This document shows, in pieces, positions 55,551-63,333 of a DNA stretch of 64,000 nucleotides. The DNA lies in contig JAEOSZ010000031.1 of NCBI GenBank assembly GCA_016840095.1, positions 160,938 through 224,937 of the forward strand. The letters are read 5' to 3'. Numbering within the stretch: the stretch's first letter is position 1; every line of letters begins with the position of its first letter. This stretch comes from Candidatus Heimdallarchaeota archaeon (GTDB lineage Archaea > Asgardarchaeota > Heimdallarchaeia > Heimdallarchaeales > Heimdallarchaeaceae). Made by a program: the position numbers and the translations under genes. The notes beneath the pieces are model-generated. The model did no database searches. It worked only from the letters and a program-made list of their open reading frames with translations, and had not been told where the DNA came from.

Positions 55551-56516
55551 GTGCAGATTTTGACTTTAATGGATAGGATTCAGAATTTTATAATGATGAA
55601 ATTCATGTATGGACTCTTTGAGAGAGAAAATAGTCTATCAGAAAAAGAAGATTTTGTGAAGTATAACGAAGATTCTCCTGCAAGATATGAGATTATGATG
55701 GAAGGTCATAAATATGGAAAGAGATCTGGTTTCGGACCCAAAGTAGCTCCTCTTATGATTTCCGTTATCAGAAATCAAAATAAAGTGCTGAATTCGTTAA
55801 AAAAGAATCCCCTAGAACCTAGAACAGAGATTACTGAAGATGAATTAGCTGAACTAGAAAAACTAGCAAAGAAGAAAGGTGCGGAAATAATTGGATATAC
55901 GAAGATACCATCAAATCTCATATTTGAGAACAAGGCTTTACTCCATACTAATGCAATTGTTCTAGGTTTTGAAATGGATAAAAAGAAAATAGATTCTGCT
56001 CCTAGCAAAAAATGTCTTCATGAAGTATTAAGAACATATGATGATCTAGGTATTGTTTCAAATTCCTTAGCCAAGTTCCTAAGGAAGAAAGGTTTCTCAG
56101 CTCATGCTGGTCATCCACTTATGGGTGCTGCACTCTATCCTCCAATGGCACAAATGGCTGGAATAGCCTTTTTGGGATATTCAGGCATAATGATCTCACC
56201 AGAATTCGGTCCAAGATTCAGACTCGCTGCTGTTTTTACAGGTATTGAGAACTTACCTGAGAAACCAGAAGATGAACATTGCTGGGTTCGAGAGTATTGT
56301 AAAGCTTGTAAGAAGTGTATTAGAGAATGTCCTGGTGAGGCAATATTTGACGAACCAAAAATTCACGATAATGGTCAGATTACACATGTGGAAAATACTA
56401 AATGTATGCCTCATTTCATAAACGAATATGGGTGTAGTATTTGTATCAAGGTTTGTCCTTTCAACAATGTTGATTATTATCAACTGAAAGAAAATTTCAT
56501 ACAGAAAAAGATGTAG
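55551..56516 (+). CDS. Reductive dehalogenase/QueG-superfamily 2x[4Fe-4S] protein (paralog)
   Basis: AGI...GYSG, PEFGPRFRL, CKACKKCIRECP and Cx9CSICIKVCP. Confidence 0.82.
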   Translation: MQILTLMDRIQNFIMMKFMYGLFERENSLSEKEDFVKYNEDSPARYEIMMEGHKYGKRSGFGPKVAPLMISVIRNQNKVLNSLKKNPLEPRTEITEDELAELEKLAKKKGAEIIGYTKIPSNLIFENKALLHTNAIVLGFEMDKKKIDSAPSKKCLHEVLRTYDDLGIVSNSLAKFLRKKGFSAHAGHPLMGAALYPPMAQMAGIAFLGYSGIMISPEFGPRFRLAAVFTGIENLPEKPEDEHCWVREYCKACKKCIRECPGEAIFDEPKIHDNGQITHVENTKCMPHFINEYGCSICIKVCPFNNVDYYQLKENFIQKKM

Positions 56517-56526
56517 CAGAACAATG

Positions 56527-56534
56527 TTTATAAA
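56527..56534 (+). promoter_or_regulatory. Archaeal TATA box of a leaderless gene (representative example)
   Basis: TTTATAAA ends about 22 nt before ATG 56556; similar spacing at 52624 (ATG 52653), 54494 (ATG 54524) and 46596 (ATG 46627). Confidence 0.65.
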
Positions 56535-56555
56535 AAAAATCTTATCTTTTGACCC

Positions 56556-58370
56556 ATGAATAATAAGCTTCTACGGATTAATTTATCAGAAAGTTCAATT
56601 ATAGAGGAAGATATTCCTGAGTCTGTTATTTATGACTATATGGGGGGAACTGGTTATATCACTTATTACCTTTACAAAGAGTTAGAACCAGGCATTGATC
56701 CACTCTCTCCAGAAAATAAACTAATTATTGCTCCAGGACCATTGCAAGGAACAAAGGTACCCATTTCTGGTCGTTATGCTGTTGGAACTAAGAGCCCTTT
56801 AACTGGTCTTTATCTTGACAGTAATGCTGGAGGTTTTCTAGGACCAGAAATTAGGATGGCTGGCTATGATCTAATTATTATTGAAGGGAAAGCAGAGAAA
56901 CCTGTCTACATTTCTATTAAGGACGACAAAATTGAGATTAAAGATGCTTCAGCCTTGTGGGGATATTTTGTTTATGAGACTGAAGTTCTGATTAGAGAAT
57001 TAGAAAATGAACGCAAAATGAGAATTATTACAATTGGACCGGCTGGAGAAAATCTTGTTAACTTTGCCTGTACAACTTCTGATGGTTTTCGTAATGCTGG
57101 AAGAGGGGGATTAGGAGCAGTCTTTGGTTCCAAAAATCTCAAAGCTATTGCAGTTAAGGGTTCAACTAGACCTAAAAATGGTAACCCAGCGAAAATTGAA
57201 GAAGTTAGAAAAGACATTGTTCAAAGAGCAAAAAATGCAAAAGAGGATGGGCACTTACTTCATCAACATGGGACAAGTTGGTTAGTCAAAGTATCTAGTA
57301 ATCTTGATCACTATCCTACTCGCAATTGGCAATCAGGAGAATTCGAAGATGTAGAAAATCTAAGCCATGAAGCATTCTCTGAAAAATACAAGCGTTTCAG
57401 ACGACCTTGTTTCCAATGTCCTATTGGTTGTAGTGAAACACTTGATGCTTCAGTTTTTGATTGGGTTAAAGAAGATAGGAAGGAAATTGCTAAACCTGAA
57501 TACGAGACTTTAGCTATGTTGGGAGGTAATTGCGGTATTAATGATATAGAAGCTGTTATTCATGCAAACTATCTCTGTAATCAACTAGGACTAGATACCA
57601 TCACTACAGGTAGTGCAATAGCCATGACAATGGAAGCTAAGGAGAAAGGTTTCATTGATGGTCCAGAATTTGATTCAATTGAATTTGGTAATGTAGATAA
57701 GTTTCTAGAACTCATAGACATGATAGCTTATCGTAAAGATATTGGTGAAATCTTAGCTGAGGGAGTTGCACAAGCAGCTGAGCATTGGAATATAGAAGAT
57801 TTAGCTATACATGTCAAGAAACTTCCTTTTGCAGCTTGGGATCCTCGTGCTAAACTAGGATTAGGTTTAAGTTATGCTACAGCAGCTGTTGGAGCAAGCC
57901 ATCTTAGAGGTTGGCCCACTACATCAGAGATACCTGAAAAGAGTGCAATAAAAGTATTAGATTCACTAATCGAGCAGCAGGATCTAAAGACAATTAAAGA
58001 CTGTCTATCAATTTGTCACTTTACTCATAGCATAAAACCAGCTTTGGGATTTGATGACTGTGTTGATATAGCTTCAGCTGTTTGGAACAAAGAAGTAACT
58101 TCTGAAGAGTTAACAGATTTAGCTAGAAGAATTTGGATTCTCAAAAGAATGTTCAATATGAGAGAATTCGGAGATAAGAAACCTATTGAATTTGATAATC
58201 TTCCCAAAAGATTTATGGAAGAACCTTTACCAACTGGAAGAGCTAAAGGCAAAACAGCTTTTGTAAACGATGAAGATTTCATCGAATCCAGAAGAATTCT
58301 ATATGAAAAGCGAGGATTAGATGCTGAAGGTATCCCAACAGTTGAAGAGTTGAAGAGATTAGGGCTATAA
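56556..58370 (+). CDS. Tungsten-type aldehyde:ferredoxin oxidoreductase (close paralog of 52653-54467)
   Basis: Same length (604 aa) and motifs; CFQCPIGC, PEYET, GASHL, LSIC. Confidence 0.95.
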   Translation: MNNKLLRINLSESSIIEEDIPESVIYDYMGGTGYITYYLYKELEPGIDPLSPENKLIIAPGPLQGTKVPISGRYAVGTKSPLTGLYLDSNAGGFLGPEIRMAGYDLIIIEGKAEKPVYISIKDDKIEIKDASALWGYFVYETEVLIRELENERKMRIITIGPAGENLVNFACTTSDGFRNAGRGGLGAVFGSKNLKAIAVKGSTRPKNGNPAKIEEVRKDIVQRAKNAKEDGHLLHQHGTSWLVKVSSNLDHYPTRNWQSGEFEDVENLSHEAFSEKYKRFRRPCFQCPIGCSETLDASVFDWVKEDRKEIAKPEYETLAMLGGNCGINDIEAVIHANYLCNQLGLDTITTGSAIAMTMEAKEKGFIDGPEFDSIEFGNVDKFLELIDMIAYRKDIGEILAEGVAQAAEHWNIEDLAIHVKKLPFAAWDPRAKLGLGLSYATAAVGASHLRGWPTTSEIPEKSAIKVLDSLIEQQDLKTIKDCLSICHFTHSIKPALGFDDCVDIASAVWNKEVTSEELTDLARRIWILKRMFNMREFGDKKPIEFDNLPKRFMEEPLPTGRAKGKTAFVNDEDFIESRRILYEKRGLDAEGIPTVEELKRLGL

Positions 58371-59760: not shown

Positions 59761-61527
59761 ATGAGTAATGAGTTTGATGAAGAACAGAAGATTTTCCTTA
59801 CTCTACAACCTAAGGAGAAGATTCTATTTGTCCGAAATCAGGTAAATGAAATAGTAACAACTCTAACTCAAAAGAAAGTTGATGTAGATATTTTTATTAC
59901 GAAAATTGCTCATTTCAAAACATACACATCAAGATTATTTAGATTATCAGGAGTATATAAAAAAGAGTATTTTGATTTTCTTGTATATAGTATCAAAATC
60001 ATGTGGAATGCAGTAGAGCATTGTACATCGCAATTTATGCTATATCCAGCATTGTCTGCATTCATAGATCTATTCTCAAAACTGAAAGGATTAAATCCTT
60101 ATTATACACTAGATGGAGCAATAGAACAGACTCTTGAATATGGAAAACTACCTTCTAAGGACAAAATAGCTGAATTACTTAAACAGGAAAAACAGCATCT
60201 TAATTTCCTAATTGATTATATGCAACTTGATTCAGTTTTAAGATTAGATTTGACCAAATTTGAGAAGAAGAATATTGTTAAATCTGCAACAAACTATGCT
60301 CAAATCTTGGTTTTAACTCTATACAATTTTCTGGTAACTATACCTGTTATCTCTAAAGAAGATTTTCTGGATTGGTGCAAGCTCTTTGATGATGCTCTTG
60401 AGAAAGCTAGGTTAGGTCATCATTATTTGAAAGAAATAGAAGAAGAACCATTCGAGTTATTGAGGACAAAGATATCTGAATCATCGCTCTTTTCTCTGAA
60501 AGCACAATTACACCTTCTAAGAGCACGATTTACCAATGAGAATGTGAATGAATTTCTGAATCTTGCATACATGGATAATTCTAGAGCTTTAAGTGAGATT
60601 GAACCTTACAAAAAAGATGAACTTTTTAGTGAAACTATCAGGAGTTTTTACATCCAGCAAAAGGCTTTACTTCTTGAAACAAGATTCTATCAAATTCTGT
60701 TTAATATCCAGCAAACACAGTATAAGAATTCCATCTATGTTGGGGATCTAAAAGATGAGAAACCCGAACTTACTAAATCATTAGTTAAATTTGAAATCGA
60801 AGAAATTCTAAGCGAAATTGAGGTACATGTTCAAGATCTTCTAAGTAGATCCAGAAGAGAAGAATTAGGAATTTCATTCAATTTGATAGGAATTTATGCT
60901 AAAGTATCTCTTGGTGCATATATCTATGATCTTGTAGATGAAGTTAGCACAATGGAAGAAATAATCAAGACTCAACGAATTGATGTTGGTGATCCTGAAC
61001 TTTCTTTATTACTTGCTAGATATTGGCTAATCAGATGGTCTGAAGAAAATGATGAAGAGTATTTGAGCTTATCACAAAGTTACTTCGATAGAGCAGCTGA
61101 AGTTTATCAGATGCTGTTCAATAATAGATATGTTCCTATTTATGGATATACAATGGTTGCTCTTTATCAGTTATATAAGAAGAACATTCCTAGAGCTGAA
61201 ATTTATCTGATGAAGGCGGATGATGAATATACAGACGCTAAGATGCTTAAAATACTTAATAGTTCAGAACAATATTATTATGAGAAATTTAGAGAACAGA
61301 CAGATCAAATAATTAAGGGAGAAAAGATTGACAGGCCTTTAAGATTTGATAAACCTCTCAATCCTCTAGATTTTAACTCTTGGTTAACTGAGAAGAAAGA
61401 CTGGAGAAAAAAGCTTGCTTCTTTTCCTGAACCATTTCCTTTCCATTTAGATCAGTTGAAAATACTTGAGTTTGAATTCCTTTCACCTGAAAATAATAAT
61501 TTTCAAGAAAAAGGGGATAATTTATGA
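59761..61527 (+). CDS. All-alpha (TPR-like) hypothetical protein
   Basis: 588-aa ORF, helical amphipathic pattern, A..Y...A TPR-like pairs near the C-terminus. Confidence 0.65.
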   Translation: MSNEFDEEQKIFLTLQPKEKILFVRNQVNEIVTTLTQKKVDVDIFITKIAHFKTYTSRLFRLSGVYKKEYFDFLVYSIKIMWNAVEHCTSQFMLYPALSAFIDLFSKLKGLNPYYTLDGAIEQTLEYGKLPSKDKIAELLKQEKQHLNFLIDYMQLDSVLRLDLTKFEKKNIVKSATNYAQILVLTLYNFLVTIPVISKEDFLDWCKLFDDALEKARLGHHYLKEIEEEPFELLRTKISESSLFSLKAQLHLLRARFTNENVNEFLNLAYMDNSRALSEIEPYKKDELFSETIRSFYIQQKALLLETRFYQILFNIQQTQYKNSIYVGDLKDEKPELTKSLVKFEIEEILSEIEVHVQDLLSRSRREELGISFNLIGIYAKVSLGAYIYDLVDEVSTMEEIIKTQRIDVGDPELSLLLARYWLIRWSEENDEEYLSLSQSYFDRAAEVYQMLFNNRYVPIYGYTMVALYQLYKKNIPRAEIYLMKADDEYTDAKMLKILNSSEQYYYEKFREQTDQIIKGEKIDRPLRFDKPLNPLDFNSWLTEKKDWRKKLASFPEPFPFHLDQLKILEFEFLSPENNNFQEKGDNL

Positions 61528-61632
61528 AAGAATTTTGTCATGTAGTCATATTAAGTTGACGATGAATCAACCTAAATGAAGGGTGACAGAAAGATATTAC
61601 AGGGGCTTTTATAGAAAAATAAAGTAGAAAAT

Positions 61633-62943
61633 ATGATGACAGTAGTGTGGAGAGTAGAATGTATAGAGCTACCATCGACACCAGTTTTAGGTAGACTGTG
61701 TCATCGAGTGAAGAATCTCTATAATCGAACAAATTATCTCATTAAACAGGCTCTCACTAAAAACAACAAATTTCTAAACTATTACGAACTCAATAGACTA
61801 CTCAAGTCTGAAGATTGTTACACCCTTCTCCCAGCACATACAGCGCAACATACGCTCAAACTGTTGGTGAGAAATTGGAAGGCTTTCTTTCAAGCTTTAA
61901 AAGAATGGAAAGCTCATCCTGAGAAGTTTCTAGGACAACCCAAAGCTCCACGATATAAACCTAAGGATGGAGAAGGAGTTGCAATTGTAACCAACCAACA
62001 AACTAGATTGAGGAATGGGTGGCTGATTCTACCTAAAAAAGTAGGATTTTACTATAAAACTCGTTTAACAGCTAGATGTAAATTAAAGGAAGTGAGAGTA
62101 GTTCCCAGAAAAGTGGGATATACATTGGAAATAGTATATGAGAAAAACCTTTCAAAACAGATACAAAAAAGAACTAGAAAAGGAGCGATCGATTTAGGGA
62201 CTAAGAACATAGTGGCCTTCGTGGATAACCTCGGAAACCAGCCGATTGTTGTCAAGGATCACGGAAAAGGGATCAAAAGTATTATCCAATTTTATCAAAA
62301 GAAGCAGAAAGAATTACGAGCACGATATGTGCAACAGCAGCAGAAACGATTGAAAAACCAGCAAAAACTAGTTTATGGATCAGCGTATTACCTATTACGA
62401 GAGAAGTATAGGAAGAAACTCAAGAATGCTCTTCATCAGTTGACAACTTATTTGGTCGAGGTATTTGTTGAACGAGAGCTTCATGAGGTGATTATAGGAT
62501 ATAATCCTAAATGGAAACAGCAGGTTAATCTGGGAAAGAAAACCACCCAGCTGTTTGTCAACATCCCTTTCCTGAAGATTATTAACTTGTTGAAGTATAA
62601 AGCAGAAGAACGAGGAATACTTGTTGATACTGTGCTCGAGGATTACACTTCCAAATGCAGTTTCCTAGACAATGAATTTCCTCAAAAACGAGCTACATAC
62701 TCAGGAAAACGTCATCCTCGTGGAATAATTACTTCTGCTAAGGGGTACAAGATCAACGCTGATATTAATGCTGCGTACAATATTTTACTCAAAAGCGATC
62801 CTAATGCACTTCCTCCTCGAAGTGCTGATGGGGTAGGAGGGTACGTGATGTATCCCCGTAGGGTGTGTGTGGACCCACCAGGAATGATACCCACATCGAC
62901 TATGAAATTAGCTCAACAATGTAAAGTTTATATGACTGCATGA
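61633..62943 (+). CDS. tnpB: RNA-guided endonuclease TnpB (IS200/IS605/IS607 OrfB family)
   Basis: KNLYN..NY, Q.TLK...NWKAFF, GAIDLG (RuvC-I), VIIGYN..WKQ, EDYTSKCS, INADINAAYNI (RuvC-III). Confidence 0.93.
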   Translation: MMTVVWRVECIELPSTPVLGRLCHRVKNLYNRTNYLIKQALTKNNKFLNYYELNRLLKSEDCYTLLPAHTAQHTLKLLVRNWKAFFQALKEWKAHPEKFLGQPKAPRYKPKDGEGVAIVTNQQTRLRNGWLILPKKVGFYYKTRLTARCKLKEVRVVPRKVGYTLEIVYEKNLSKQIQKRTRKGAIDLGTKNIVAFVDNLGNQPIVVKDHGKGIKSIIQFYQKKQKELRARYVQQQQKRLKNQQKLVYGSAYYLLREKYRKKLKNALHQLTTYLVEVFVERELHEVIIGYNPKWKQQVNLGKKTTQLFVNIPFLKIINLLKYKAEERGILVDTVLEDYTSKCSFLDNEFPQKRATYSGKRHPRGIITSAKGYKINADINAAYNILLKSDPNALPPRSADGVGGYVMYPRRVCVDPPGMIPTSTMKLAQQCKVYMTA

Positions 62944-62945
62944 TA
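62800..62945 (+). ncRNA. Putative omega-RNA (reRNA) scaffold overlapping the tnpB 3' end
   Basis: GC-rich stretch with stem GGGTAC-GTGAT-GTATCC (62839-62855); position is typical for TnpB guide RNAs; boundaries approximate. Confidence 0.45.
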
Positions 62946-62973
62946 AAAACTCATCATAATAGCTTTTACGAAG

Positions 62974-63333
62974 ATGTATTCGAATATGACTATTGAAAGG
63001 AAAAGATACAGAATTGGAGGAATAACATGGTTTGTTCTTGCAATTGTTCTTGTAGCTGTTTACTATTGGTTCTATAGAGATTTAGTCATATTTCTTACAG
63101 TTGCAGGAATAGCAACTGTTCTTTTTGTATTTTTGTGGTACTTATCCAGAAGGGGAATTGCATCTAAAAAAGAAATTATGCACAAAGATTTAACAGAACA
63201 TCAACGTGCAGTAACGAAAGGGTACAAAGAACAGAATAATCCCTACAATGTCAGATTCTGTGAAGACTGCAAATATAAAATCGAAAAAGATTCAAGTTTT
63301 TGTTCAAATTGTGGGAAAGTTGTTGAGGATTAG
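62974..63333 (+). CDS. Two-TM membrane protein with C-terminal double zinc ribbon
   Basis: Two TM helices; FCEDC...FCSNCG. Confidence 0.8.
   Translation: MYSNMTIERKRYRIGGITWFVLAIVLVAVYYWFYRDLVIFLTVAGIATVLFVFLWYLSRRGIASKKEIMHKDLTEHQRAVTKGYKEQNNPYNVRFCEDCKYKIEKDSSFCSNCGKVVED

Follow-up and report, generated by a model that had tools for sequence, protein, structure and literature searches.

The DNA segment at positions 61526-62957 of the window (the whole stretch of 64,000 nt that was analysed) is a single copy of a mobile element, 1.4 kb long and common among Heimdall (Asgard) archaea, that carries tnpB only. Its junctions, its end motifs and the company kept by its TnpB relatives indicate that it is probably an IS607-type TnpB/omega-RNA element that is non-autonomous and moves by means of an enzyme acting in trans, with AT as its crossover dinucleotide. 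The features of the element and its flanks are, in window positions:

61522-61525, plus strand: TTAT, the conserved 5' flanking motif and predicted TAM, seen in 20 copies and present in empty sites too
61526-62957, plus strand: the whole element with tnpB only, 1432 bp, delimited by empty sites and by paralogues in the same genome with exactly the same span
61526-61632, plus strand: non-coding left end, with 10 variable A/T-rich bases, the repeat arm and then a promoter-like box, as found in copy alignments
61533-61557, plus strand: left arm of the inverted repeat, with the tandem motifs TGTCAT (61536-61541) and AGTCAT (61544-61549), the first 10 bp from AT
61633-62943, plus strand: tnpB, 436 aa, with D187, a shifted E336, D377 and a degenerate zinc finger, recognised by family HMMs
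62798-62957, plus strand: predicted omega-RNA scaffold over the tnpB 3' end, with hairpins at 62798-62834 and 62839-62855 and an approximate 5' limit
62924-62948, plus strand: right arm of the inverted repeat, with the motifs ATGACT (62932-62937) and ATGATA (62940-62945), the last 10 bp from the terminal AT
62946-62957, plus strand: conserved right terminus AAAACTCATCAT, in which CATCAT is invariant in 20/20 copies
62958-62977, plus strand: predicted omega-RNA guide, the unconserved 3' flank, which would lie directly 3' of TTAT in an empty allele

The ends of the element were placed by the empty sites of at least ten congeneric genomes and by an alignment of 20 copies from 15 genomes. In six close congeners (G018, G010, G008, G034, G012 and G013) the flanks abut directly in the sequence ...GATAATTTAT|AAC... 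(..TTTAT|AAC..), and four more distant congeners (G001, G036, G016 and G006) lack a 1.4-kb insert at this site. No target duplication was detected, the joint of the empty site being scarless in the six close congeners. Similarity between the aligned copies begins just 3' of TTAT and stops after ...AAAAACTCATCAT at the right. The 5' flank is conserved at positions -4 to -1 (T in 18, T in 19, A in 20 and T in 20 of the 20 copies), the 3' flank shows no conservation, and the TTAT target is present on the 5' side only. The element itself starts with R-A, and its terminal AT (62956-62957) is the same as the AT of the TTAT flank, so that AT is found at both junctions in 20/20 copies (..TT[AT]|G... 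at the left, ...CATC[AT]|flank at the right). The AT at 61524-61525, the last two bases of TTAT, represents the putative crossover dinucleotide. The insertion point is located 3' of TTAT in a roughly 30-nt spacer, with two co-directional genes on either side.

Two observations concern these neighbouring genes. The upstream gene (588 aa, no Pfam match) ends in a stop codon that spans the junction as T|GA (61525-61527); empty sites carry TAA at the same stop position, so that the length of the upstream protein is not altered by the insertion. For the downstream gene, the listed ATG (62974) is probably not the true start (62974-62988), as the orthologues in the empty-site genomes start at the match of the second ATG (62986, MTIER..).

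The two ends of the element carry an inverted repeat, which an earlier note on this DNA had described correctly: 61533-61557 and the reverse complement of 62924-62948 are identical at 21 of 25 positions. This is far above chance, the best 25-mer score being 17 among 3000 random genomic pairs (windows 1432 bp apart) and 19 among 3000 shuffles of the element ends. Repeat-finding extends the inverted repeat to 39 nt at 74%. Same-strand similarity between left and right end is at chance level (13/25), and the likeness is strictly inverted. The note had further equated this repeat with the element ends, had taken CATG for the junction and target and had derived a near-palindromic empty site, TTTTGTCATGATAAAA. 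Copy comparison and empty sites set the ends at 61526 and 62957 instead, 7 nt (left) and 9 nt (right) outside 61533 and 62948, which makes the repeat subterminal; the boundaries lie away from the repeats and without a duplication, and the empty site has the sequence given above rather than the palindrome. CATG is present at 61539-61542 and 62939-62942, but inside the arms, and it is absent from the arms of the TGTCTCC, TGTGTAAT and TGTCAAT subfamilies.

Each end contains two tandem TGTCAT-like motifs at a distance of about 8 bp, and their orientation is inverted between the ends. At left and right alike, 10 bp separate the motif nearest the tip from the AT (AT-N10-TGTCAT ... ATGACA-N10-AT), and the outermost 10 bp differ between the two ends and are variable at the left. 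At least five arm types with matched changes in both arms were distinguished across subfamilies. Left arms of the types TGTCATG/TAGTCAT, TGTCTCC/TTGTCAC and twofold TGTCTCC each face their exact complement at the right; the types with twofold TGTGTAAT, twofold TGTCAAT and TGTCATATTGGC are mirrored by an exact right-arm complement in the same way. Since both arms co-vary between subfamilies, they form a functional pair. Decayed arms were seen in a few copies. Much the same end pattern was found in 18 further copies of G010 and in 15 metagenome copies, with two G010 left flanks departing from TTAT. Within this genome, the arm motif is restricted to the tnpB elements and one solo left end.

A conserved box, ATATTAC-N-GG-N-G-YTTTTATAG (ATATTAC..TTTATA), is located at 61594-61614, at the same position in all copies and some 20-25 nt before the start of tnpB. 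It is probably a BRE/TATA promoter that gives rise to a leaderless or short-leader mRNA.

The tnpB reading frame reaches the right end of the element, with its stop at 62941-62943, as the earlier note had stated. The protein scored 139.6 bits with NCBIfam NF040570 (cut-off 100) and was over the cut-off with Pfam PF07282 (42.9 bits) and just under it with PF01385 (29.7 vs 30.5 bits). A profile of the TnpB family matched ISDra2 TnpB and Cas12f in the PDB; this required the family profile, a phmmer search of the PDB with the single protein having revealed no match. D187 (in DLG), E336 and D377 are invariant in the alignment, the canonical RuvC-II site is occupied by Gly, and the shifted glutamate lies six residues before the lone cysteine. 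Such a rearranged RuvC type with a shifted glutamate is already known (PMC10691335; bioRxiv 10.1101/2023.08.09.552727). Pro-Fanzors are marked by DPG in RuvC-I combined with a shifted glutamate in RuvC-II (bioRxiv 10.1101/2023.08.09.552727); this TnpB has the shifted glutamate only, with DLG in place of DPG, and does not classify as a Fanzor or pro-Fanzor. The RuvC triad, the HMM matches over cut-off and a structured RNA at the 3' end place the protein among the TnpB/OMEGA nucleases.

RNAalifold analysis of the predicted omega-RNA scaffold in 18 copies yielded 17 pairs, of which 4 showed compensatory changes; two conserved hairpins of this kind are what an omega-RNA scaffold would be expected to have. 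Solo right-end remnants start near the 5' limit of this scaffold. An Rfam scan of 61300-63200 gave no match, and folding the right end as a single RNA sequence gave no significant result on its own (z = -1.47). From established TnpB biology, the flank at 62958-62977 would act as the guide.

IS607, IS1535, ISC1926 and CboIStron lack a target-site duplication and have a subterminal, imperfect inverted repeat, short repeated motifs and matching dinucleotides at the two junctions (PMC6188088; bioRxiv 10.1101/2023.11.20.567912); the IS607 core dinucleotide is formed by the last two bases of the TAM (bioRxiv 10.1101/2023.11.20.567912). The element shares all these traits: a scarless joint without duplication, the same dinucleotide in left flank and right terminus, an imperfect inverted repeat that is near-terminal but not terminal, and short repeated motifs in both ends. 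Like IS607-family elements it carries a tnpB with an omega-RNA overlapping the right end; unlike them it has no tnpA, and a palindromic AT with the TAM TTAT is found here in place of GG and TGGG. The canonical IS607 core is GG, so that AT would represent a variant core. As no serine transposase (a MerR-type HTH followed by a resolvase catalytic domain) is encoded in the element, it can only be a non-autonomous derivative of the IS607 type.

The lineage of this TnpB is one associated with serine transposases. Its nearest relatives with a linked transposase come from other Heimdall-class archaea and from Dolichospermum; they have an IS607-type TnpA gene directly upstream, and their TnpBs are only 35-46% identical to the one described here. 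The IS607 transposase profile NF033518 was over cut-off at G054:C54 (TnpB 43% identical), at G065:C52 (35%) and in Dolichospermum (36-37%). For the relative at G059:C114 (46%, a fragment) the TnpA was detected by tblastn and, over cut-off, by a genome-wide NF033518 search, for the relative on a metagenome contig (38%) by tblastn only. In a quick maximum-likelihood tree, the transposase-linked relatives were sister (support 100) to the Heimdall clade with tnpB only. GTAT marks the start of four Dolichospermum/Cylindrospermum copies, and the four cyanobacterial right ends recovered (Dolichospermum, Anabaena) end in CTAT. Their ends contain inverted TGTCTAT/ATAGACA motifs, which share the inverted TGTC core with the motifs of the element; the layout of the Dolichospermum ends is the one seen here, and cyanobacterial tnpB-only derivatives retain a tnpA stub. 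The right end of the Heimdall-class relatives reads ..ATAACCT, compared with ..CATCAT here; the left boundary of the relatives from the other Heimdall-class genus, including the autonomous G054:C54, could not be fixed.

According to the IS607 reading, a serine transposase supplied in trans would bind the end motifs on double-stranded DNA. Strand exchange at AT would excise the element as a circle and leave the scarless TTAT|target joint, and the circle would insert at other AT (TTAT) sites. An omega-RNA comprising the right end and the adjoining flank would load TnpB, which would cut the TTAT-plus-guide sites of emptied alleles, and the copy would then be restored by recombination. Several points count against this reading: pairings between TnpBs and transposases are polyphyletic (PMC10691335), the combination of a TTAT flank with a TCAT terminus is also expected of an IS200/IS605 element, the core is AT and not the canonical GG, and the searches described below revealed neither a matching transposase nor a sign of recent movement.

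The earlier note had suggested looking for a transposase with the same ends; a search of 83 genomes of the class revealed no transposase with matching ends. Among close relatives there were no autonomous copies in the 83 class genomes, the species-representative genomes and the JGI metagenomes, and the approximately 45 close copies examined had neither an IS607 transposase beside them nor an extra gene. NF033518 was over cut-off in 22 of the 83 class genomes; in this genome (89% complete) nothing scored over it. The IS607 transposases of the genus are doubtful candidates for the mobiliser: the ends of their elements (ACCGTCGTCAACTGA.. or GGGGTGACCAAC..) are unrelated to this element, and their partner ORFs (475-652 aa) are unlike this TnpB. 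Two resolvase-domain genes of this genome were also set aside, being conserved host genes, present in a single copy and with the catalytic domain at the N-terminus, and not IS607 transposases; their promoters have nothing in common with the element ends.

Large open reading frames were also observed. One of 640 aa at G000:C8:2842-3021 (L021) contains a Cas12f/TnpB TNB domain, and in sister genera (L166 and L168 in G037/G038) an IS607-type transposase is followed by an ORF of 652 aa that has no Pfam match in its first 475 aa. These 640- and 652-aa ORFs may be the large TnpB-like partner of a second IS607 family.

The assembly contains seven tnpB copies of the family plus end fragments, and more than 350 matches were found in 52 of the 83 genomes of the class, with at least 21 copies at differing loci in the richest genome. 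The four closest paralogues have dS values of 0.56-0.88 and dN/dS values of 0.09-0.13. The closest copy pairs are 86-87% identical in two genomes (86% for the closest G010 pair), and with no pair of copies above 86-87% there was no sign of recent movement. The copies look old and rarely mobile, but they are under purifying selection, by which TnpB is kept functional.

This raises the tentative possibility that the copies are now immobile relics, whose TnpB and omega-RNA are selected for homing-type self-preservation or for a host function. Such a reading concerns present-day function and is compatible with any original mobilising enzyme. The paralogues are old yet constrained, their closest pairs have diverged to the extent just given and no cognate transposase was found, all of which speak for it; on the other hand, the site is empty in at least ten congeners and filled in two, which shows insertion within the genus, and up to 21 or more copies per genome at different loci and the presence of MITE-like short derivatives speak against it as well. 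Intact TnpB genes that persist for long without a cognate transposase pose a small but real puzzle as to what sustains them.

We consider it unlikely that the element is of the IS200/IS605 type (IS1341-like) and moves as single-stranded DNA by a Y1 TnpA acting in trans, with TTAT as left cleavage and target site and TCAT as right cleavage site. IS200/IS605 is where solo TnpBs are usually filed (PMC10691335). IS1341-type solo-TnpB elements likewise have tnpB as their only gene, depend on mobilisation in trans and integrate 3' of a short motif with no duplication, but insertion 3' of a fixed tetranucleotide without duplication is also an IS607-type feature and does not discriminate between the two. 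IS1341-type ends have same-strand subterminal hairpins for the Y1 enzyme, whereas here the ends are alike only as inverted repeats, the left end is free of hairpins and the genus is without Y1 TnpA. At the right end, a hairpin with compensatory changes was found in some subfamilies only (e.g. CTTGTC/GACAAG vs CTTGGC/GCCAAG), in favour of an IS200/IS605 end. At the left end, 16 copies yielded 0 consensus hairpin pairs, and top-strand single-stranded DNA folds were no better than shuffles at both ends. The weak 5-bp hairpin at 61555-61571, which the earlier note had taken to leave an IS605-type end possible, is not conserved across copies. Y1 TnpA (PF01797) is absent from this genome and was detected in 0 of the 25 genomes of the genus; in the class, 11 of 83 genomes contain PF01797 (10 over the curated cut-off), and the TnpBs adjoining these Y1 TnpA genes are at most 24% identical to this TnpB.

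Only two genomes have the target site occupied, this one and that of its closest relative, Heimdallarchaeota AB_125; in at least ten other congeners it is empty. AB_125 (G009:C161, L024/L048; MEHH01000161) carries a related element (73% nt identity) in the same intergenic TTATAA but in opposite orientation, with the junctions ..TTT|ATGATGAG...CTTT|ATAA... The TTATAA target offers TTAT on both strands, with the palindromic AT. In a quick tree the copies of this genome form a clade that does not include the AB_125 copy (supports 88, 84 and 95). Because of this placement, two independent hits at TTATAA appear more likely than a flip; an in-place inversion of a shared ancestral copy is disfavoured by the tree, with moderate support.

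The opposite orientation in AB_125 could be the fossil of a flip, or it could reflect a strong site preference. A flip would be in line with an orphan IS607-type tnpB lineage in Heimdall archaea, in which the transposase was lost, TnpB stayed under strong long-term purifying selection and the palindromic AT would let a serine recombinase flip the element in place as readily as excise it. In this scenario, the mobilising enzyme could be an undescribed or a host-encoded recombinase. We regard the scenario as doubtful, and rather improbable as a whole.

Very improbable is an idea of the kind put forward in the earlier note, with the ends corrected: a DDE (IS630/Tc1-like) or other enzyme would move the element by cut-and-paste at its inverted ends, and the invariant AT would be a target duplication of 2 bp. 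In its favour, the ends show symmetry relative to AT, AT on both sides is readable as a fixed duplication and IS630-linked TnpBs with symmetric ends are known in prokaryotes (PMC10691335), but the outermost 10 bp do not form an inverted repeat, the lack of conservation at position +1 of the 3' flank excludes a TA duplication, Cas1 and DDE_3 (IS630-type DDE) are absent from this genome (89% complete), the arm motif is confined to tnpB elements and one solo left end, and the linkage of the TnpB lineage is to serine transposases. The element shares symmetric ends and a nuclease gene in a non-autonomous element with the IS630-linked TnpBs (DDE-6 branch) and with the TIR/TSD carriers of Fanzors (PMC10691335; bioRxiv 10.1101/2023.08.09.552727); it differs from them in a repeat that stops short of the tips, in the lack of a variable duplication and of a DDE partner, and in DLG instead of DPG.

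The proposal of a non-autonomous TIR element moved in trans, which the earlier note had put forward, therefore holds in part. The non-autonomous character, the content of tnpB only, mobilisation in trans and functional inverted repeats are retained; assignment to the TIR/TSD cut-and-paste class is not, the repeat being subterminal, the outermost 10 bp unlike each other and a target duplication absent. Boundaries apart from the repeats and an empty site free of duplication are the outcome that the earlier note had itself named as speaking against its proposal. The suggested relevance for the transition from TnpB to Fanzor is weak in view of the DLG motif and of the symmetric-ended IS630 TnpBs already described in prokaryotes (PMC10691335). 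The element is not a prokaryotic forerunner of Fanzor-carrying TIR transposons but a member of an ordinary class with well-defined ends. For an abundant Asgard TnpB family, the comparison of copies defines a TAM (TTAT), the ends, an AT crossover and predicted transposase-binding motifs, which eases TAM, omega-RNA and excision assays.

Shorter relatives of the element were also observed. Two tnpB-less derivatives of about 280-380 bp, at G000:C108 (about 722-1104) and G000:C36 (about 56345-56622), are 70% alike; both have a TTAT-flanked left end and a right end with the omega-RNA region and finish with ..CATCAT, and the G000:C108 derivative also contains the promoter-like box. Both appear to be MITE-like copies or copies with an internal deletion. 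At G000:C4:21340-21760, a solo right-end remnant of 125 bp lies about 165 nt from an inverted fragment resembling the right terminus, and these may be the remains of nested or head-to-head copies. Two TnpBs nested in the Heimdall clade carry other taxonomic labels: one is encoded on a 2.8-kb contig binned as Cloacimonadota (L117; SOIS01000011.1), the other in a MAG labelled Thorarchaeota (L135; JBHLQZ010000105.1). Both are likely to reflect binning or labelling errors rather than transfer.
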